From Eledone cirrhosa (lineage: Eukaryota): a stretch of 64,000 nt of DNA. Shown here piece by piece: positions 13,441-64,000 of the stretch (its first letter is position 1; every line of letters begins with the position of its first letter). The DNA is taken from contig OZ024763.1 in NCBI GenBank assembly GCA_964016885.1, positions 21,452,001 through 21,516,000 of the forward strand, given 5' to 3'. The translations under genes were made by a program, and so were the position numbers. Under the pieces are notes generated by a model. That model was given only the letters and a program-made list of their open reading frames with translations. It did not search any database and was not told the DNA's origin.

Positions 13441-13640
13441 CCCTTTAGCATTTAAGCTGGCCATATCCGGCCAGAATTCTCTCACCTTCAGACTGGCAAT
13501 AACCAACCGCTCATACTTATGTTAAGGTATACTTCTCAAAATAAGTAATATCAAAATCTCATAGATTGGATATTATGTGAGATAAAACCTTTACTATGAA
13601 AATATAATAGTATATATAGAGTAATGTAAATGCTAAAGGG
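13441..13640. mobile_element. piggyBac-like MITE P1 (complete, 200 bp)
   Basis: TIR CCCTTTAGCATTTA / TAAATGCTAAAGGG with TTAA TSD on both sides. CCC termini plus TTAA are typical of piggyBac. Confidence 0.92.
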
Positions 13641-13704
13641 TTAATAGAAGTGTATATGAAAGCATATATGATATGTTTATATATAATAAATATTCATATG
13701 TGTG

Positions 13705-13932
13705 TTTAATATCATCATCTTCAGCCAAAATCAACTCAACAATTAATCTCCACGTGTGTCTGTTGTTCATTGGCGATGCCAAGTCCTGGATTTCAATACC
13801 AGAATCTCTGGAGATGACATTGGGATAGGAGAGCTTGTGCCCCCTATTATTAGAGACTGCTTGTGGTTTCCAGAGCACTAGTGGGGACATAGCTTCAGAG
13901 GTGGCATGATGGCTGTGTCCAGCAAATCTTAC
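13705..13932 (-). mobile_element. 3' end of RTE/RTEX-type LINE ORF (remnant)
   Basis: Translation VRFAGHSHH...LVLWKP...YPNVISRDSG...DLASPMNNRHTWR, similar to the C-terminus at 35200-35642. Ends in a GAT tail. Confidence 0.75.
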
Positions 13933-13943
13933 TCTCCTTTTAT

Positions 13944-14477
13944 GTTAATGACATAGGCAGTGTCTTTCATTAGCAATATGGAAATGAAAGGGTTAATGAC
14001 ATAGACAGTGTCTTTCATTAGCAATATGGAAATGAAAGGGTTAATGACATAGACAGTGTCTTTCATTAGAAATATGGAAATGAGAGGGTTAATGACATAG
14101 ACAGTGTCTTTCATTAGAAATATGGAAATGAAAGGGTTAATGACATAGACAGTGTCTTTCATTAGAAATATGGTAATGAAAGGGTTAATGACATAGACAG
14201 TGTCTTTCATTAAAAATATGGAAATGAAAGGGTTAATGACATAGACAGTGTCTTTCATTAGAAATATGATAATGAAAGGGTTAAAGACATAGACAGTGTC
14301 TTTCATTAGAAATATGGAAATGAAAGAGTTAATGACATAGACAGTGTCTTTCATTAGAAATATGATAATGAAAGGGTTAAAGACATAGACAGTGTCTTTC
14401 ATTAGAAATATGGAAATGAAAGGGTTAATGACATAGACAGTGTCTTTCATTAAAAATATGAAAATGAAAGGGTTAAA
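13944..14477. repeat. 48-bp minisatellite, about 11 copies
   Basis: Unit GTTAATGACATAGACAGTGTCTTTCATTAGAAATATGGAAATGAAAGG. Explains the repetitive 247-aa ORF. Confidence 0.95.
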
Positions 14478-17291: not shown

Positions 17292-17373
17292 TAGTAGTAG
17301 TATTATTATTTTTTTTATTTCATTTTGATATTGTATTTTATAAAATATATCTATACATATATATATACATACA

Positions 17374-17429
<56 letters not shown>

Positions 17430-17509
17430 TGTATGTATATATATATGTATAGATATATTTTATAAAATACAATATCAAAATGAAATAAAAAATAATAATA
17501 CTACTACTA
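17292..17509. repeat. near-perfect palindrome (foldback) centred on (TA)n
   Basis: TAGTAGTAGTATTATTA...CATACATCTA (TA)n TAGATGTATG...TAATAATACTACTACTA. Arms differ only in a T8 vs A6 run. Confidence 0.9.
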
Positions 17510-19184: not shown

Positions 19185-19632
19185 CTCTTTAGCATTTAAA
19201 CTTGCCATATCTGGCCAGAATTCTCTCACCTTTTTCTGTTGAAACTGGCCATTTCTGGCCAGAAATCTCTCACCTCCTTCTGTTTACACTGGCTGTATCT
19301 GGCCAGAATTCTCTCACCTTTTTCTGTTGAAACCAGCTATATCTGGCCAGAACTCTCTCACCTCTTTCTGTTGAAACCAGCTATATCTGGCCAGAATTCT
19401 CTCACCTCTTTCTGTTGAAACCAGCTATATCTGGCCAGAACTCTCTCACCTCTTTCTGTTGAAACCAGCTATATCTGGCCAGAATTCTCTCACCTTTTTC
19501 TGTTTAAACTGGCTGTATCTGGCCAGAATTCTCCCACTTCTTTCTGTTCAAACTGGCTGTAACCAGCCACTCATACTGATGTTAAGATATTGTTCTTGAA
19601 ATAAATAATATCAAAACCTCATAGATTCGATA
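19185..19632. mobile_element. piggyBac-like MITE P1 with internal 44-bp tandem expansion (8 copies), right end replaced by LINE sequence
   Basis: TTAA|CTCTTTAGCATTT start. TATCTGGCCAGAATTCTCTCACC unit every 44 bp from 19208 to about 19560. Confidence 0.85.
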
Positions 19633-19915
19633 TTGCAGGTAGTTTGTTCCATGCTTCAGCAACTCTGAGCATGAAAAAATGTTTCTGAAAGTCATGGGAG
19701 CTGTGCTGTTTTCTGATTTTGTAGACATGTCTATGGGTGTTAGACATATGGAATTCAAAAAGGTGCTCAGGGTTGTTTTTGGAAGGATGGTTAAAAATGT
19801 TGTGGGTGTCTACCAAGTTAGTTGCCAGACGTCGGAGCTTCAATGTATCCATGCCCAGGGAAGCAAGGTGTTCAGAGTATAGTAGATACCTGATGGAGGG
19901 TATTTTTATGCATAT
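19633..19915 (-). mobile_element. CR1/L2-type LINE 3' ORF remnant
   Basis: LASLGMDTLKLRRL...KHFFMLRVAEAWNKLP is the typical CR1-clade C-terminal motif. Same family as 34052-35003. Confidence 0.85.
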
Positions 19916-20847
19916 ACATGATATATATATATGTATAAGAACAGTAGAGGAATTTGAAATACATGACAAATTGGTATTGGAAATTAAGTGGCTTCCAAAA
20001 TAAAATAATATTCTTTCTTTCTTTCTATTCCGTTAATCAAAGGTTCTGGTTCTTTTGTGTAGGAAAGGAAGCTATGGTTCCCAAAATATTCTCGGTGTTT
20101 ATTTATAAATGGCCAAGATATTTGAAATCAGAAATGTGAAATATAAAACTAGATAGCATGAAGTATAATTCTGTTGATCTGTCTTTTATTGTCTTGTAAC
20201 TTTTCTTCTTTCAAAGTAGTTATAATGTTATTGATGAAAGAAAGGGAAAAAATATAGTTTGGTTCGGTTTGGTCTCTCATTGTTGTAACTGTCAGACCTT
20301 CCAGGGAAAGAGAGAGAGTTTAAGAAAGAGAGAGAAAAAATAAGAGAAAAAGGGAGAGGAGAAAGAAAGAAATAGAGAAAGAGTAAGAGAGAGGGAAAGA
20401 GAGAATGAAGGAGAAAGAGAGAGGCAGAAAAATATAGTTTCGCTGCAACTGTCAGCCCTCCCTCCCCTCACCACCACCATTACATAACTTTGTGAGGAGA
20501 GGGCGACAGAAAGAGGAGGGGAGTTTAAGAAAGAGAAAGAAAGAAAGAGGTAGAGAAAGAGTAAGAGAGAGATAGAAAGAGAAAGAGAGAGAAAAAGAAA
20601 GAAACGTTGCCAGATAAAGGAAATTGTGTGTGTTATAAAACTCCTTTTAAACTGTATTTCATCATCATCATCATCATCATCTCAGCTAATACTAGGAGCA
20701 ATTCTTCCTCTGTTTCTCTCTTTTTTCCACTCACTCTATGCTTCTCTGGAAGAAATCTATTGTATTCAGGTTTAAATATACCCTAAAAATGCAGTATGTT
20801 AACATGGCACCCCTACAACTCCCTCGGGAATTACAGAACAAGGAAAA

Positions 20848-21401: not shown

Positions 21402-21700
21402 TGTAGGAGGTGAGTTTTATTGTAGTACAATAAAGCAATGCAGATATCGGATAAGAAGCACTCTACAGTTTGTAGGACTGGAGTATAAATAATATATAAG
21501 ATCAAAAGATGGTTAAAAGAGTTCCATATGTTGATTTAAAACTGCACTATTCACAAGTGTGTTTTAACCTTCATATCATGTCTCCCTATTTTATCTGACG
21601 AAAACGCAAATGTTATTGCATGATGATATTTGTTTTTGAAATGCGCATAATAAAATACATGGAACTTTTTTAACCATCTTTTGATCTTATATATTATATT
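21402..21700 (+). mobile_element. Penelope-like non-autonomous hairpin element (family H1) in (TA)n
   Basis: About 88-bp unique tail, inverted arms (about 21490-21531 / 21657-21700) enclosing a hammerhead. Second copy at 41692-41980. Confidence 0.7.
21587..21657 (+). ncRNA. type I hammerhead ribozyme (intact core)
   Basis: Stem I TATTTTAT/ATAAAATA, CTGACGA, long stem II 21602-21637, GAAA, palindromic stem III TGCGCA, predicted AUA cleavage after 21649. Confidence 0.85.
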
Positions 21701-25499: not shown

Positions 25500-25670
25500 A
25501 TATTAGAGAGTGTCTGGTCCCTACAGCTGAGCTCTTGCCATTCTCATAGCTAATTCCTAGAGTTAGCTGTCAAAACAACAAGAGCTCACCCATTGGGCTC
25601 TGACTTTCTCTAATATAACCATACTCTACTACCCCCAGTATTGAGTACTCTGGTGAATAATGGTCTTACT
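25500..25670. mobile_element. degenerate palindromic MITE (family M1)
   Basis: CAGCTGAGCTCTTG...CAAGAGCTCA...CTCTACTACCCCCAGTATTGAGTACTCTGGTG. Homologous to 32248-32520. Confidence 0.65.
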
Positions 25671-25734
25671 AGTTTAAAACTGTTAAAATCCTGACCTATC
25701 TATCTATTTATCTATCATCATCATCATCATATAT

Positions 25735-25989: not shown

Positions 25990-26292
25990 GATAACAAAAT
26001 ATCGTTATAGGTAATCCAGTTAGAGGTTATGAATACTTCTTATTATGGATAGTTTTAGTGTACGGCGTTGCTTGACTCAACAAGAGGTTTATGTAGATGA
26101 CGAGTTTATGATTTCACTTGTATTCCTATGTAAGTTTATCTTGGAGTAATCAAATTGAAAAAGGGGAGAATAACATGGTCAACAGTACAAAAAAGGGAAT
26201 TTATTTGCAGTGAAACAATTGTTAGACTGCAAATAAATCCACTTTTATGTACCATGTTATTCTCCACTTTTTCAATTATATATATATATATA

Positions 26293-26977
26293 TTTCGTTT
26301 CTGAATTTGTTTAGCAAGATTCTTTATCTGAAATCGTGTGTTGAAACCGATATTGTTATACTTTGGGAGGGTCATGTTGCCAATAAGAACATAGAAATAA
26401 AAATAGAATCCACACACAGAAAAGATGCAATGTTTAGGCAAATTACAGAGGCAGTAAGCATAAAAGAATTACAACCAAAATTAAATAGAAAATATGAGTG
26501 GAACAGCAACATCACAACTTACAATTAAGGACAAAATGAAAACACACACAGGACAAAATGAAAACACACACACACATAGAACAAACAACCAACCAACAAT
26601 AAATAAATAAATAAATAAACAAATAGATAAATGAACACAAACACACACAGACACCCGGATGTGGCGCATGCGCAAACTGAGCACACAACACACACACAGA
26701 AACAAAATAGTGTAGGATAGAAGAAAGGAAAGGCACAGAAACAAAGAAAGGAATCCCCAGTCACTGAAGAGGTCACAGAGTGTGTGACGAAAGGACTATG
26801 ACTATATATAAACAACTATCTGGTTGTGGAACCAACCAACTAACCAGAAATTTATAAGTTTGTAAGTTTGTAAATTTGTAAATTTATAAATTTATAAATA
26901 TATAATAAATTGAAGTGAAAGCAACTGGTGCGTGTGTTTCTTATTGGCAACATGACCCTCCCAAAGTATAACAATAT
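26293..26977 (+). mobile_element. 5'-truncated Penelope-like element (GIY-YIG C-terminus + pLTR with hammerhead + inverted 5' arm)
   Basis: FRQITEAVSIKELQPKLNRKYEW (26389-26528) fits the PLE GIY-YIG C-terminal RxxxEAxxIxxxxPxLN motif. 40-bp inverted arms 26350-26389 / 26938-26977, 57-nt extension on the inverted arm, (TA)n flanks. Confidence 0.85.
26759..26803 (+). ncRNA. minimal type I hammerhead ribozyme in PLE pLTR
   Basis: AGTCA-CTGAAGA-G-GTCAC(agagtgt)GTGAC-GAAA-GGAC-TA-TGACT. Predicted CUA cleavage after 26798. Confidence 0.75.
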
Positions 26978-27019
26978 ATATATATATTTATATATATTTA
27001 TATAAATAAAAATCAAGAT

Positions 27020-27205
27020 GGATTCAGTTTGAAACTGGTTAGGCCATTACTCACCAGAGTACTCGATACTTGGAGTAGTAGAGTGTGGTTATATTATAAA
27101 GAGTCAGGACCCCGACAGCTGAGCTCTTGCCATTTCAACAGCTAGTTCTAGACTGGAGCTAGCTGTTGGAACAGCAAGAGCTCAGCTGTTGAAGCCCCGA
27201 CTCTG
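27020..27205. mobile_element. partial palindromic MITE M1
   Basis: AGAGTCAGGACCCCGACAGCTGAGCTCTTG...CAAGAGCTCAGCTGTTG...CCCGACTCT. Confidence 0.7.
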
Positions 27206-27851: not shown

Positions 27852-28160
27852 ATAGGAGGAGGTTATAGTTCACTTGAAGCATTGTGTAATGAGGTATAAA
27901 CATTTGAATATGTATAATAAAGCCAAAACAATGCAGGTATGGACATAGAAAAAAAGAATGCAATTGCAAAAGATATTGTTGACAAATCGTCTTTTACCTT
28001 AGATTTATTTAAATGTCCTTAATTTTCGAGATAATATCTCTTCTTCAGAGTGAAATAAAGGTCTCAAACCAGCGTTCTAAATATCTTGCCAAGCCATGCT
28101 GACAGTTCTATGTCCATACCTGCATTGTTTTGGCTTTATTATACATATTAAAACGTTTAT
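27852..28160 (-). mobile_element. Penelope-like hairpin element (family H3) in (TA)n
   Basis: Unique tail, then about 55-bp inverted arms (about 27894-27950 / 28106-28160) enclosing a minus-strand hammerhead core. Confidence 0.65.
28017..28052 (-). ncRNA. minimal hammerhead motif, weak stem I
   Basis: Minus strand CT-CTGAAGA-A-GAGAT(att)ATCTC-GAAA-AT-TA-AG. Only 2 bp of stem I pair. Confidence 0.55.
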
Positions 28161-28182
28161 ATATATATATATATATATATAT

Positions 28183-28384
28183 AACGAAGGAAATGTGGTA
28201 AGGAACCAGGTCGACCATAACGCACCAAAGTACTCAATACTTGGGGTAGTAGAGTGGGTAATAGGAACCAGTAAGACCCCGACGGCTGAGCTCAAGCCGT
28301 TTCAACGGCTAATTCTGGACTAAAAATTAGTCCAGAATTAGCTGTCGAAACGGCTTGAGCTCAGCCGTCGGGGTCTTACTGGTT

Positions 28385-28390
<6 letters not shown>
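28183..28390. mobile_element. palindromic MITE M1 (right arm truncated)
   Basis: Near-perfect palindrome 28260-28390. Left arm homologous to 32248-32330. Confidence 0.85.
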
Positions 28391-28439: not shown

Positions 28440-28590
28440 TTCTGTATCTCCTTGGTGATCCTGTCTCTAATTTTGTACCCCTGAAGAAGGGATAAACCCC
28501 GAGACGTTGAACATTCTTTCCCCTTTTCCATAGAAAGCATGAAACTAATAAGACTTTTTGTACCTCTGTTGTGTCTTTTCCTTGAACTAT
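28440..28590 (+). mobile_element. old PLE-like fragment with decayed hammerhead
   Basis: CTGAAGA-AGGGATAAACCCC-GAGA-CG-TT at 28481-28508. Second copy 32098-32242 (CTGAAGA-AGGACTAAAGCCT-GACA-TG-TC). Confidence 0.45.
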
Positions 28591-31891: not shown

Positions 31892-32247
31892 TAAATCCAA
31901 CAATTAATGGTAGGGTCTAAACCGTATGAAGAACTCAATGTAATCTGTATGTAGATGTCGTGAAGCAAAGTTTAAAATACAAAATTTTCAACGATATAAT
32001 TCATTGGATACAGAGTCAAAAATACATATATATATATGTTTCTTCATTGTACTTCATTGTACTTGTTTTTTTGTTTTGTTTACTTTTTACATATATAGTT
32101 TCCTTTGTGATCCTGTCTCTAATTTTGTCCTCCTGAAGAAGGACTAAAGCCTGACATGTCAAACTTTCTTTCCCCTTTTCCATATAAACTGTGAAACTGA
32201 TACAACTTTTTTTTGTACCTCTGTTTTGTCATTTCCTTGAAATATAT

Positions 32248-32520
32248 AACAAAGAAGGTGTGGTAAGATACCAGGTGGACCATAATGCACCAGCGTACTC
32301 AATACTTAGGGTAGTAAAGTGGGTAATAGGAAAAGAGTCAGGACCCCGATGGCTGAGCTCCAGCCGTTTTGACAGCTGGATCCAAACTGTTCGATCTAGC
32401 TGTCAAAATGGCTGGAGTTCAGCCATTGGGGTCCTGACTTTTTTCCCATTTTACTACCCTAAGTATCGAGTACTCTGGTGCATTATGGTCCACCTGGTAT
32501 CTTACCACACCTTCTTTGTT
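32248..32520. mobile_element. complete palindromic MITE M1 (273 bp), TA-flanked
   Basis: AACAAAGAAGGTGTGGTAAGATACCAGGTGGACCATAATGCACCAG ... CTGGTGCATTATGGTCCACCTGGTATCTTACCACACCTTCTTTGTT. Confidence 0.9.
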
Positions 32521-32532
32521 ATGTATATATAT

Positions 32533-32845
32533 ATATTGTTATACTTTGGGAGGGTCATGTTGCCAATAAGAAACACACGCACCAGTTGCTTTCACTTCAA
32601 TTTATTATATATTTATAAATTTATAAATTTACAAATCTACAAACTTATAAATTTCTGGTTGGTTGGTTGGTTCCACAACCAGATAGTTGTAAATTTATAA
32701 ATTTATAAATATATAATAAATTGAAGTGAAAGCAACTGGTGCGTGTGTTTCTTATTGGCAACATGACCCTCCCAAAGTATAACAATATCGGTTTCAACAC
32801 ACGATTTCAGATAAAGAATCTTGCTAAACAAATTCAGAAACGAAA
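32533..32845 (-). mobile_element. second copy of the 26293 PLE family: inverted pair of pLTR ends only
   Basis: Near-identical to 26815-26977 and 26293-26389 in opposite orientation. About 95-bp inverted arms. Confidence 0.85.
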
Positions 32846-33056
32846 TATATATATATATATATTTAAGAAACTGAGATTTTTTTAAATGTCCCACATGAGT
32901 AAAAAATATAAAAAGAAATTGAAAATGCAACTGAAGTCTTTTAAGAATATTTATTTACTTTACTGGTTTCAAGGTTCTTATGATTTTCAAAAGTAAAATT
33001 AAGATGGAGGGTTTGTTTTCTGTTGTGATTTGTCTCACATCTCTTTTTCTTACACG

Positions 33057-33899: not shown

Positions 33900-33901
<2 letters not shown>

Positions 33902-34050
33902 AATCAGAATGGATGCAGTAAAAACCTGTTAGAGTACTCGATACTTGGGGTAGTAGAGTGTCATATTTTTGCCGCCAGAACACTGGCGTTCCAGTTTGGA
34001 ACTAGCTGTTGAAACGACAGCAGCTTAGCCGTTGGGGTCCCGACTCCTTC
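33900..34050. mobile_element. partial MITE M1
   Basis: GAGTACTCGATACTTGGGGTAGTAGAGTG...GGGGTCCCGACTC. Confidence 0.6.
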
Positions 34051-34051
34051 A

Positions 34052-35003
34052 TATAATAATAATAATAATAATGAAATTATTGTGTACAGTGCTCAGGTGC
34101 ACTACAACTCATCAAAGGTGCATATATAGTACATGGAATAATGTTCAAACATCAGGAAAATGAACAGTGTATGAGTCATGATATACATGTGTGCGTGTGT
34201 ATGGAGGGGGAATATCAGGTGTAGTGTGGGCGAATCTCAGGAAGCATGGAAGTTTTGAAGGATGCAGTGTCTCGGCAGCTAACAATTGATGCAGGTAGTT
34301 TGTTCCATGGAGGTTTTAAAGGATGCAGTGTCTCGACAGCTAACAACTGATGCAGGTAGTTTGTTCCATGGAGGTTTTAAAGGATGCATTGTCTCGACAG
34401 CTAACAACTGATGCAGGGAGTTTGTTCCATGGAGGTTTTAAAGGATGCAGTGTCTCGGCAGCTAACAACTGATGCAGGTAGTTTGTTCCATGGAGGTTTT
34501 AAAGGATGCAGTGACTCAACAGCTAACAACTGATGCAGGTAGTTTGTTCCATGGAGGTTTTAAAGGATGCAGTGTCTCGGCAGCTAACAACTGATGCAGG
34601 TAGTTTGTTCCATGGAGGTTTTAAAGGATGCAGTGACTCAACAGCTAACAACTGATGCAGGTAGTTTGTTCCATGGAGGTTTTAAAGGATGCAGTGTCTC
34701 GACAGCTAACAACTGATGCAGGTAGTTTGTTCCATGGAAGTTTTAAAGGATGCAGTGACTCAACAGCTAACAACTGATGCAGGTAGTTTGTTCCATGCTT
34801 CAGCAACTCTGAGCGTTAAAAATGTTTCCGAAAGTCATGGGAGCTGTACTGTTTTCTGACTTTGTAGACATGCCCACATGTGTTAGACACATGGAAATCA
34901 AAAAAGGTGCTCAGGGTTGTTGTTGGCAAGATGGTTAATAATCTTGTAGATGTTTACCAAGTCAGTTGCCAGACATCGGAGCTTTAATGTATCCATGCCC
35001 AGG
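34052..35003 (-). mobile_element. CR1/L2-type LINE 3' end with (TTA)n tail
   Basis: Homologous to 19633-19915. Includes the 3' UTR and an internal 61-bp tandem array. Confidence 0.85.
34247..34797. repeat. 61-bp minisatellite, 9 copies, inside the CR1-type element
   Basis: GGATGCAGTG starts at 34260, 34321, 34382 ... 34748. Confidence 0.95.
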
Positions 35004-35071
35004 TGCGTGTGTGTGAGTGTGTGTATATATATGTGTGTGTGTGTATATATATATATTTATATATATATATA

Positions 35072-35642
35072 TGTCCTGGTGTTTCTCCAGTGCAAGGCGC
35101 ATACAATAGTCCACTACGATGATAAAAAGGTAGGGAGCCAATGTATCTCCCTGGAGCACTCCAGCCAGTATCTCAAAGAACTCTGTCATCCCATCAGGTG
35201 TAATGACTTAGTGGAGTCTGTAGTGGAGTCTGTGCTGCTGTATGGGTCTGAGGCTTGGACACTGACCAAGAGACTCACTCAGATGGTGGATGGGTGCTAC
35301 ACGAGAATGCTGAGGATGGCTCTGAACATTAATCAGTATACACTGAGGATGAAAAACTCAGAGCTGTATGGGAGCATCCCAAAAGTCAGCTCAAAAGTGA
35401 CACAGAGGAGACTGAGGTTGGCTGGACATGCTCACCGACATCCAGAGTTGACATTGCACTCAGTGCTCCTTTGGGAGCCCCTACATGGACACACTAGAAG
35501 AGGAAGACCAAGGTTAATATATGTTGATGCCCTAAGGACAGACACTGGTCTGTTGGAGATGCAGGATATGGCAGCGATAATGAGGGACAGAGACCGCTGG
35601 AGAGAACTCGTCCATGGATCTCGGGAATTTTACCCGCCTTAG
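35072..35642 (+). mobile_element. RTE/RTEX LINE fragment with 5' inversion
   Basis: Plus strand 35200-35642 VESVLLYGSEAWTLTK...RRLRLAGHAHRH...RGRP...DRDRWR. Minus strand 35072-35195 AGVLQGDTLAPYLFIIVVD (RT motif). (AGAT)n tail. Confidence 0.9.
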
Positions 35643-35859: not shown

Positions 35860-36013
35860 TACAGTGGTAAAAAACTTGGAAGTTACATCTGTAATTGGTA
35901 GTGCACTTAGTCCAAAGGATGAGTTCGGTATATAGAGTTAGTTCCACAACAAATTAGCAAGCCATACTCGAGGGCATGTGTATGGTTTACTAATTTGTCA
36001 TGGAACTAACTCT
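35860..36013 (+). mobile_element. hairpin element related to 63698-63869 but lacking the hammerhead
   Basis: Tail GCACTTAGTCCAAAGGATGAGTTCGGTA matches GCACTCAGTCCATGGGATGAGTTTGGTA. Arms 35934-35967 / 35980-36013. Confidence 0.65.
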
Positions 36014-38244: not shown

Positions 38245-38790
38245 TATTTGGTGTCCCCCAAAAATGTATACATACTTGAACAGCACTCTAATGTATGTAT
38301 ACATTTTGGGGGGACATCCTGTATATAAAGGCATATATGATATGTTTATATACAGGGTGTCCCCCAAAAATGTATACACACTTGAACAACATTCTAATGT
38401 ATGTATACATTTTTGGGGACATCCTGTATATAAAGGCATATATGATATGTTTATATACAGGGTGTCCCCAAAAAATGTATACACACTTGAACAGCATCTT
38501 AATGAATGTATGTATACAGTTTTGAGGGGACACCCTGTATATAAAGGCATATATGTTGTGTTTATATACAGGGTGTCCCCAAAAGGTGTACACATTTCAA
38601 CAGTATTCTAATAAACATGTGTATACATTTTCGGAGGACACCCTGTATATAAAGGCATATATGATGAGTTTATGTATAATAGATATACAATCAACAGCAT
38701 TTTAATAAACATGTGTATATATTTTTGGGGGAGACCCTCTGTATAAAGGCATATATGATGTGTTTATGTATAATATATATATATATATAT
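38245..38790. mobile_element. tandem array (about 5 units, about 105-110 bp) of a Tc1/mariner-type palindromic MITE
   Basis: TA|CAGGGTGTCCCC..ATGTATACA...TGTATACATTTT.GGGGACA(T/C)CCTG|TA plus a constant linker. Solo copy at 58888-58987. Confidence 0.8.
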
Positions 38791-40861: not shown

Positions 40862-40920
40862 GGTTGTTTATATATTGTCAACGCTCTTTCATCACACATT
40901 CTGTGACCTCCTCAGTAATA
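40862..40920 (-). ncRNA. decayed hammerhead homologous to 26759-26803
   Basis: Minus strand CTGAGGA-G-GTCACAGAATGTGTGAT-GAAA-GAGCGT-TGACAATATATAAACAAC. Cleavage triplet degenerate. Confidence 0.55.
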
Positions 40921-41637: not shown

Positions 41638-42577
<940 letters not shown>

Positions 42578-45780: not shown

Positions 45781-46905
45781 TTTCTTTATTAGCCACAGGG
45801 GCACAAAAGAAGGGGACAAATACAAAGGGGGAAGTTTACATACAATAAAAACGTGTAAAATGTTATCACAAATGCAATTTAAAAAGTTAGTTGATTTTCC
45901 CCAATAGGGGGAGACAGTTCATATGGGTAACACATAGCCCCGAAAAAACTCCAGGAGTACGAAGAGTTTGTACTCCTTTCCTCTCCTCCTCCTTTTCCTC
46001 AACCTACAGGCTGATATAGAGAGAAGGCCCATTCACTCGGCCCATTCTCGCCACTTTCACCCACCTTTCATAAAACTTGCTGGGGTACAGCACCTCTCTC
46101 TCCATCCTGATTCTTCTTCCAAAGTGGTATTTGAAAAAAAGAATCAGTTGTTGGCCGGAGAGAAAGGTGTCTGACCTCAGCCCTTTCAACCTTGTCCACC
46201 ATACAACCTCTTTCACCATAGCTATCACACAAAGGAAAACCGCCTCTCATTCGTTTTTGAAGGAGGGTGGCAGTTTGATCATGACAATGGACTCGGTGGT
46301 CAACCGGATTGGTCCCACCCGCGACAATAGTCGTTCTACATAGCCCCACAGGTCAGTGACGTCCGGGCAGTGTATGAATGCGTGCGCGACGGTTTCTTCT
46401 TTACGCATGCACCTCGGACAGATCTTTTTTGCAGGGTCCCTGCTCGGGCGCCCATGTCTGTAGAGCTTGTCTCGAACTGGTAGAGCTCCTCGGTAGCACT
46501 GCCAGGCCAGGGACTTTTGGAAGTTGTCCATCGGTCCCAGGCGGAAGGTCCTACCGAACAGACTGGCCAGTTCATCTTCCTCTACGCCTAGAGTTTCACC
46601 GAGCGCGTCGTCGCACTTGCTGCGGATCAACCCTCTATAGAATGACGAAGTGGAGTCTCCACTGATCCCCGGGTCCGCCTGCCAGAGGGCTGTGAGCCCC
46701 TGAGCACATTCGATGTGCCAGTCGCCCGTTTTCCTCGGTCTTTGCTTGACCCAGGACTGCAGCTCAGTCAGCGAGACGAGTCGTGGGAAGGCTCGCCTCA
46801 CGAACGGGGCCCACACCGGTTGTCCGGTGAGGAATACGTAGAGATGCCGCAGCCTGAGCGCGTGTTTGCGCATCGTCAACCACGGCATCCCAGCCCTCCG
46901 TTAGA
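45781..46905 (-). mobile_element. Tx1/L1-clade LINE 3' fragment (zf-RVT region), frameshifted
   Basis: ORF 46247-46888 with LAWQCYRGALPVRDKL and CCHC finger CPRC..EETVAHAFIHC. Continues in ORF 46004-46228 (KEVVWWTR). AATAAA near the 3' end; GC-rich relative to flanks. Confidence 0.9.
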
Positions 46906-56010: not shown

Positions 56011-56364
56011 TATATATATAAATCAGGATAGAACCAGTTTAAAATTAGTTTGATCATTATGCAACAGTGTACTCGATACTTGGGGTAGTAGAGACACACC
56101 TTCTTCAGCTTCATATCCAGTATTATTAGAGCTACTGGTTATATACCAACCCGCTTAGACCAAAGTATGACTGAACTTGGATTTGTGGACAAAGTGCACA
56201 GCTCCCTAATTCATAGAATACAAATGTCTGGCACCTTCAAAATTTGCAAAACATTCCTGCAATTCAAGCGATGACAACTTCTTTTCTTTTACAACCTTGC
56301 CACCAGGAAACTGGCCGGTCAAAATTGTACTCGAAATTAAGAGAAAGAGAACATACATACATAC

Positions 56365-63322: not shown

Positions 63323-63499
63323 TAATAAAAACAATGAAATAAAAACAAAGAACAAGTTCCTTATATTAAAAAATTCATCATTTTACTATCGTTTCTGGGA
63401 TGTATATGTGTGTTGGTATGTATATCATATAGATCTATGTAAAGATATTACAAATTATCAGAGGAAATATACATACCTTCACATATACATGCCGTCCTC

Positions 63500-63680
63500 A
63501 AAAGAGTCAGGACCCTGATGGCTGAGATCCAGCCATTTTGACAGCTATATCGATCTAGCTGTCGAAAGGCCGTAGCTAGGCCGCCGGGGTCCTGAATCTT
63601 TTCATATTACCGAGTCTACTACCCCAAGTATCGAGTACTCTAGTGGGTTATGGTCCACCTGGTATTTTACCACACCCTAT
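63500..63680. mobile_element. partial MITE M1
   Basis: AAAAGAGTCAGGACCC...TATGGTCCACCTGGTATTTTACCACACC matches 32330-32510. Confidence 0.75.
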
Positions 63681-63697
63681 CTGATATATATATATAT

Positions 63698-63869
63698 AAT
63701 AGTAGAACACTGGAGTGTTATATCCGTAGTAGTAGAGCACTCAGTCCATGGGATGAGTTTGGTAGAAGTAGTTCCACACCAGTTAGTTCACCATATCGAG
63801 CTGAAGATCCGCATAAGGTGAAACATTTGTTCTCAGTATGGTGAACTAACTGTTGTGGAACTACTTCTA
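63698..63869 (+). mobile_element. 172-bp hairpin element (family H5) in (TA)n containing a hammerhead
   Basis: 65-bp tail, then 34-bp inverted arms 63763-63796 / 63836-63869 directly extending hammerhead stem I. Confidence 0.75.
63798..63834 (+). ncRNA. minimal type I hammerhead ribozyme
   Basis: GAG-CTGAAGA-TCCGCATAAGGT-GAAA-CATTTG-TT-CTC. GUU cleavage after 63831. Stem II is short (2 bp). Confidence 0.7.
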
Positions 63870-63884
63870 TATATATATATATAT

Positions 63885-64000
63885 CATCATCATTCATCAT
63901 CATTTCATTTTACGTCCGCTTTTTCCCTGCTTGCAAGGGTGGGACGGGAACTGATACTGGCTTGATTTCTACAGCTGGATGCCCTTCCTAACACCAACCT
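63885..64000 (-). mobile_element. SINE family S1 3' end (runs off window)
   Basis: Matches 22741-22860. Confidence 0.85.

Follow-up and report, generated by a model that had tools for sequence, protein, structure and literature searches.

We analyzed a 64,000-nt stretch of Eledone cirrhosa DNA (the window) and report on H5, a 172-nt element at positions 63698-63869 in which a hammerhead ribozyme motif caps a long hairpin. H5 is probably a minority, folded-back form of an abundant linear repeat end, most likely made in one step by Penelope-like retrotransposition and immobile thereafter.

H5 lies between two (TA)n runs (63684-63698 on the left, where a family C hairpin element described below also ends, and 63868-63884 on the right). 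A 65-nt tail (63698-63762) comes first, followed by a left arm, a loop of 31 nt, and a right arm whose last base is 63869. The arms (63763-63796 and 63836-63869) form 32 Watson-Crick pairs and one G-U pair over 34 positions; when extended through hammerhead helix I to 63800/63832, the pairing comprises 35 Watson-Crick pairs and one G-U pair over 38 positions. The fold has a z-score of −7.35, and none of 200 shuffled sequences was equally stable. With this pairing and a type I hammerhead in its loop, the 172-bp hammerhead-capped hairpin described in an earlier note on this DNA is real. Within the (TA)n flanks, a target site duplication is indistinguishable. An Rfam search of 63400-64000 at E ≤ 10 returned generic microRNA-hairpin matches only and no hammerhead, and the reading frames in the arm and tail lack a clear start codon frame.

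The two halves of H5 are inverted copies of one sequence. The right half (63832-63869, plus strand) is the 38-nt sequence 3′ of the hammerhead cut site, a pLTR-type end that lacks a tail, ends on (TA)n, and has the deepest read coverage of H5. It is preceded by the hammerhead core (63801-63831, plus strand), assigned to type I by its layout and family conservation. An inverted copy of the same 38 nt occupies 63763-63800 (minus strand); its inner end is the first base past the predicted cut site and also serves as the 5′ strand of helix I. The tail, a PLE (Penelope-like element)-type 3′ extension, is carried by this inverted copy and thus has the minus strand as its element sense. As the earlier note described, it contains its own small stem-loop (63739-63758, minus strand), a candidate signal for reverse transcriptase (RT) binding or initiation; the letter most common at 63754 (92% of reads in run X8, introduced below) remains compatible with this stem.

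A sibling element at 35860-36013 shares 71% identity with H5 over 118 columns in a within-window comparison (E = 1.4 × 10−12). Its tail (35860-35933, minus strand) represents a diverged subfamily and by itself scores 57 against the H5 tail, while the maximum in 2000 shuffles was 32. Its arms (35934-35967, minus strand, and 35980-36013, plus strand) form 30 Watson-Crick pairs and one G-U pair over 34 positions, with a fold z-score of −6.68. This diverged relative therefore keeps the tail and the paired arms around a 12-nt loop, as had been claimed. The first 5 nt of this 12-nt center (35968-35979, plus strand) align with the end of the H5 left arm, and the rest may be what is left of a palindromic helix III. 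We speculate that the sibling folded back at this helix and then underwent a small deletion.

To characterize the H5 family, we compared public sequencing runs with 63696-63872 at 80% likeness, using four of ten runs listed, none of the ten being recorded as RNA. These four runs, from at most three samples and under two species labels, contain the family: X1 and X3 are contigs from one sample of organism A, X8 comprises raw RAD-seq reads from organism A, and X4 comprises contigs from organism B (3722, 3820, 8865, and 1133 matching records for X1, X3, X8, and X4, respectively). Contig depth is not a copy number; however, the summed depth of approximately 850,000 on the right arm is far above the depth of 5 to 25 of the single pieces listed, and the family is therefore highly repeated, with a rough estimate of thousands to tens of thousands of copies.

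Coverage collapses at the fold-back junction. In X8, 87 reads cover 63798, compared with 1664 at 63796 and 1989 at 63805 (4-5%), and contig depth at the junction is 224 versus 22,165 in X1 and 225 versus 25,113 in X3 (approximately 1%). The loose ends of the X8 reads (best 24 of 572) account for the alternatives: a different, pyrimidine-rich sequence precedes 63797 in 1273 reads, and a related one precedes 63814 in 813; 1099 reads continue past 63869 into a directly oriented tail, and 1219 stop at (TA)n ahead of 63702. From the collapse and the loose ends together, the usual form is a linear one in which the upstream sequence leads into the hammerhead, the hammerhead into the arm, and the arm into an optional tail that is directly oriented and ends on (TA)n. 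The family has two discrete ends on (TA)n, the arm end and the tail end, and in H5 a truncated copy of the linear end is preceded by an inverted copy that bears the tail.

Folded-back forms are nevertheless not confined to the copy in the window. Approximately 10 other left-to-right joins, several of them ribozyme-less, are found among the best 15 of 28 joints. Moreover, 6 of the 24 contig pieces listed (of 8822) cross the junction region with 10 to 22 other letters, so that the H5 design recurs; two of these pieces evidently represent one locus, and there are perhaps three to five loci in all. Head-to-tail joints of H5 units are absent from the 15 of 28 joints listed, tail ends abut (TA)n, and the window contains a single unit with no tandem copies. 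An upstream motif taken from the reads has no match within the window, and a second such motif matches only H5. Neither the 64-kb window nor the read ends, which extend 30 nt, contain an RT or endonuclease open reading frame (ORF) tied to the family. A 26-nt H5 pattern had no matches in metagenome contigs or prokaryote genomes; a 19-nt pattern matched four loci, all without flanking similarity, which we dismissed as chance. Separately, 465 X8 reads with an end behind 63749 join the family upstream sequence and the edge of helix I directly to the middle of the tail, representing an internally deleted, ribozyme-less linear form, possibly from one RAD locus.

The reads also reveal how the arms came to match. 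All three imperfect arm pairs of H5 become Watson-Crick pairs when the majority letters are substituted (63779, 63796, and 63835; 87%, 88%, and 86% of X8 reads, respectively). These defects are private to the H5 copy, and the hairpin was therefore probably perfect at birth. In addition, the two arms carry matching letters at the mirrored variable sites 63770/63862, 63773/63859, and 63774/63858, and at two of these the H5 letter is in the minority among X1 contigs (63858, G>T in 88%; 63862, T>C in 77%). Shared letters at mirrored variable sites indicate that both arms derive from one template lineage. The earlier note had emphasized that arm pairing is kept despite divergence between H5 and its sibling. 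The pairing is real, but it is expected when the two arms of each hairpin are copied from one template, and it is not evidence of selection on RNA structure. We therefore reject a covariation reading of the arms, whose complementarity was inherited by copying one template twice.

The loop of H5 has the layout of a type I hammerhead, with CUGANGA, GAAA, and NUH in order and an open-ended helix I. Its parts are CUGAAGA (63801-63807), helix II (63808-63819), GAAA (63820-63823), helix III (63823-63830), and GUU (63829-63831), and cleavage is predicted after 63831. Helix III has 2 bp and a 4-nt loop. Helix II is short, with two C-G pairs closed by a U-U in place of the G10.1-C11.1 pair. In a post hoc test, 11 of 3,000,000 shuffles of the 31-nt loop fit the hammerhead layout. 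A strict hammerhead scan of the window yielded three matches, compared with an expectation of 0.17 per shuffled window, and missed H5 because it required a firmer helix II; Rfam at the gathering score gave no matches in the window, to hammerheads or otherwise. The hammerhead fold of H5 has an energy of −7.2 kcal/mol, whereas the minimum-energy fold of these 53 nt reaches −10.6 kcal/mol. Hammerheads with a U-U closing helix II are known to be active: in the axolotl hammerhead HHR_Amex2, which combines this feature with a 2-bp helix III, the monomer is described as cleaving 22% within one hour and the dimer as cleaving better (PMC7229834). Hammerheads of PLEs have likewise been described as having a palindromic helix III and acting as dimers (Cervera and de la Pena 2014, PMC4209133).

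Variation in the public reads is consistent with such a mode of action. Among the 40 of 49 variant rows listed, CUGA, G8, A9, GAAA, and U16.1 are untouched and neither position of the helix II U-U (63808 and 63819) has a variant row; N7 and loop 2 vary. The earlier note had proposed checking the CTGANGA/GAAA core for conservation, and these rows contain no core variant except at N7. Position 63826 is A in 82 to 83% of contig depth, and with this letter the helix III region is perfectly palindromic; the H5 copy has lost this palindrome and would form a self-duplex with two U-U mismatches. Loose ends from organism B carry a different helix III palindrome in which the two central-flanking letters are changed, and one such end has GUA where H5 has GUU. 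This pattern of helix III and the core agrees with selection, in the parent, for a hammerhead that forms dimers, and the family hammerhead looks conserved, although the H5 copy itself is degraded. Judging from sequence, we predict that the ribozyme is active in the parent RNA, where it probably works as a dimer, and that it is weak or dead in the single H5 copy, where little cleavage is expected because the palindrome is lost, a tandem partner is absent, and the interrupted helix I is now a continuous stem. Molecule ends do pile up at 63827 in X8 (505 of 987); we read these as a restriction cut of the RAD library rather than as ribozyme cleavage, and this cut explains the lower share of A at 63826 in that run (30%).

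H5 is not alone in the window. An inverted arm with a one-sided tail in (TA)n recurs in at least four other families, with tails of 52 to 95 nt. The most informative is a PLE-type family with units at 26294-26975 and 32535-32850, which has an inverted 39-nt end and a 58-nt tail; the second copy consists of a palindrome plus tail. The first unit contains a strict-scan hammerhead at 26764 and encodes a 45-amino-acid fragment of the GIY-YIG C-terminal type (26391-26528). Five of its six database matches align with this fragment, and the longest resembles the C-terminal GIY-YIG region of eukaryotic RT proteins in its features and predicted structure. Pfam gave no name for the fragment or for these five relatives, a protein word search with the fragment gave no match, and we rejected the sixth relative (P0002) as an unrelated repeat protein. 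Because one unit holds both the hammerhead and the GIY-YIG-type fragment, a PLE with a C-terminal endonuclease makes an H5-like design in the same genome. The same family has an ATG-led frame running from the repeat end through the tail, and a decayed hammerhead related to that of the 26.3-kb unit lies at 40915 (minus strand). A motif apparently common to the H5 arm and the PLE end at 26.8 and 32.7 kb was discarded as weak (BLAST E value of 3.8) and circular, the pattern having been built from those copies.

A second family has two copies (21405-21686 and 41697-41971), each with a 93- to 95-nt tail, a 26- to 28-bp arm, and a hammerhead with an 8-bp helix I and a palindromic helix III; the junctions of the two copies are nearly the same, differing by 9 nt, and within the window this family is the most promising candidate for replication as an entire unit. 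In a third family (27855-28149), a hammerhead-like motif on the minus strand (28048) lies between 44-bp arms that pair perfectly; the 52-nt tail is on the long copy, an arrangement opposite to that of H5. Family C comprises hairpins with tails of approximately 80 nt at 63500-63685, 32243-32525, 28176-28386, 27010-27204, 25509-25700, 33900-34054, and 56017-56092. Its centers vary between copies, one copy is tailed on both sides, and two copies differ in the upstream module to which the family C tail is joined. In its right half, family C is similar to the 3′ portion of a hammerhead whose helix III is long, and, speculatively, the family could represent a fold at helix II of another hammerhead; no linear parent was found for it. 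The segment after the family C hairpin is loosely similar to the upstream sequence of the H5-family reads. MITE-like palindromes derived from PLE-type ends, a route that the earlier note had raised, do occur in the window.

How might one retrotransposition event produce H5? In the scheme that we favor, the endonuclease and RT of a PLE would nick a (TA)n run, one target strand would prime cDNA at the tail end, and the other would prime cDNA at the arm end. The tail-bearing cDNA would stop, or become joined, at the hammerhead cut position. Because the helix I strands are complementary, the two cDNAs could then anneal at helix I, leaving a seamless hairpin in place of the natural interrupted helix I. 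Annealing is our model for the H5 junction; joining could instead be caused by cleaved RNA that ends at the cut position, and H5 alone does not separate the two causes. Other stop or anneal points would give rise to the sibling and to the ribozyme-less hairpins found in the reads.

Several elements of this scheme have precedents. PLE insertions are described as 5′ truncated and biased toward microsatellites, often with an inverted copy next to them and a tail at one end only (PMC8557442, PMC3846280); palindromes at inverted junctions have been reported, and self-priming has been suggested (PMC3846280). Purified Anolis PLE protein nicks AT-rich DNA on both strands and extends both, two internal RNA start sites delimit its tail, and hammerhead cleavage is dispensable in vitro (PMC11167929). 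Like H5, units of endonuclease-positive (EN+) PLEs join an inverted copy to the 5′ side and carry a tail on just one of the two copies (PMC3846280, PMC8557442, PMC11167929), and they share with the H5 family an AT-rich or microsatellite target, two discrete 3′ ends, and a hammerhead just upstream of the repeat end. The pattern of inverted repeat plus tail is therefore already published, and H5 is a new family of that kind. H5 differs from these units in its extreme truncation (172 bp), the position of its junction inside helix I, and the lack of a linked ORF, and its 65-nt tail is longer than the 30 to 40 bp usually published for PLE tails. Octopus genomes are reported to be rich in PLEs (PMC13282606, PMC8967140). 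In literature that leaves aside most subscription papers and Repbase, we found no description of the H5 family, including in octopus-like genomes, or of self-propagating PLE hairpins.

The nature of the linear parent bears on this reading. Compatible with it, and a possibility that we hold tentatively, is that the parent is a short, nonautonomous, retrozyme-like RNA that borrows PLE enzymes rather than the end of a coding PLE. Animal retrozymes have been proposed to be PLE derivatives (bioRxiv 10.64898/2026.07.22.740005), and the H5 family resembles non-LTR retrozymes in its very high abundance and apparently noncoding nature (bioRxiv 10.64898/2026.07.22.740005), with no ORF seen and no clear start codon frame in the arm and tail. 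The shape of its hammerhead also fits the description of HHR_Amex2, including the U-U at the base of helix II and the 2-bp helix III with a tetraloop (PMC7229834). The minimal hammerheads of PLEs share with H5 the type I layout, a 4-bp proximal helix I, an apparently palindromic helix III region in the family, and occurrence mostly as single dispersed motifs (PMC4209133); however, their helix II has 6 to 8 bp, the G10.1-C11.1 pair, and an extra base, whereas that of H5 is short and closed by U-U. The H5 hammerhead thus looks nearer to the retrozyme type than to the PLE minimal type. Retrozymes, however, are head-to-tail tandem repeats that give circular RNAs, whereas H5 comprises one inverted unit, no head-to-tail joint is present among the 15 of 28 joints listed, and the tail abuts (TA)n rather than a next unit. 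The view upstream of the hammerhead spans 30 nt.

Another alternative is that the hairpin plus tail is itself a nonautonomous unit. From a minus-strand transcript, the PLE RT would prime at both start sites, and the self-complementary cDNAs would anneal along the arms; the ribozyme would be a wrong-strand passenger that can be lost, as in the sibling and family C. The minus strand of H5 does hold the arm and tail in element sense, and the use of antisense templates and the in-trans use of pLTR cis-sequences have been argued for (PMC3846280). Recurrence could also be read in this way: 6 of the 24 contig pieces listed span the junction region with their many differences, two copies of a family designated D have nearly one junction, and family C consists of several copies of hairpins with one or two tails. 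Nevertheless, the junction represents only approximately 1 to 5% of the hammerhead-bearing signal alongside many other junction points, family C centers vary by copy, and the complementarity of helix I would make the junction recur without descent. We therefore regard propagation of the hairpin as unlikely. Similarly improbable is a broader proposal in which hammerhead helices set the fold-back points of PLEs (helix I in H5, III in the sibling, and II in family C) and hairpin-plus-tail units self-replicate by double priming from the anti-ribozyme strand, as ribozyme-shedding, retro-mobilized MITE look-alikes. Of the small ribozyme-bearing mobile unit envisaged in the earlier note, what survives is a mobile-element product tied to PLE-type ends; the hairpin with its ribozyme as the mobile unit is not supported, given that the linear form is commoner.

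We consider it very unlikely that a linear copy inserted first and acquired its inverted half later, by template switching during replication or by repair. Such an event would also be expected to leave near-perfect arms, and AT-rich microsatellite flanks are unstable. However, both outer ends of H5 are the two discrete (TA)n ends of the family, the same design is seen in several families, and the inverted half could not have been copied from the direct half because the former has a tail and the latter does not.

Had a MITE or Helitron-type DNA element captured a hammerhead, the product would share with H5 its short palindromic form, long inverted repeat, TA target, and small hairpin near the tail end, yet this origin is barely credible for H5 and is refuted as family behavior by the linear majority form, in which most copies lack a hairpin. 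The transposase-type terminal inverted repeat behavior that the earlier note had named as a refuting outcome was not found: the ends of H5 are not inverted repeats, the tail is one-sided, the usual family form is not palindromic, and a target site duplication would be hidden by (TA)n. The apparent Helitron-type end hairpin is private to the H5 copy: at 63716, 99% of reads have a letter that disrupts it.

If H5 is a fold-back product of PLE-type insertion, stubs of this kind would be mislabeled in annotation as MITEs or microRNA hairpins. The abundance of the family would make it possible to test where the inverted junctions of PLEs fall with respect to the cut site and helices of the hammerhead, and mapping these junctions bears on whether the ribozyme acts during transposition. 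Were hairpin units to replicate as such, they would constitute a new route to short palindromic mobile elements.

The window contains further repeats, and its SINE-like repeats and TA-rich background give it an octopus-like look. Hammerhead-like cores that fail the strict scan occur in short repeats between TA runs at 28481 and 32133 (plus strand) and 55895 (minus strand). Fragments that we take to resemble the 3′ ends of LINE-type ORFs are present at 34950-35642 (plus strand) and at 46247-46900, 19619-20032, and 13633-13944 (minus strand). Other palindromes or palindromic tandem units lie in TA-rich context at 26156-26274, 17294-17507, and 38250-38754.
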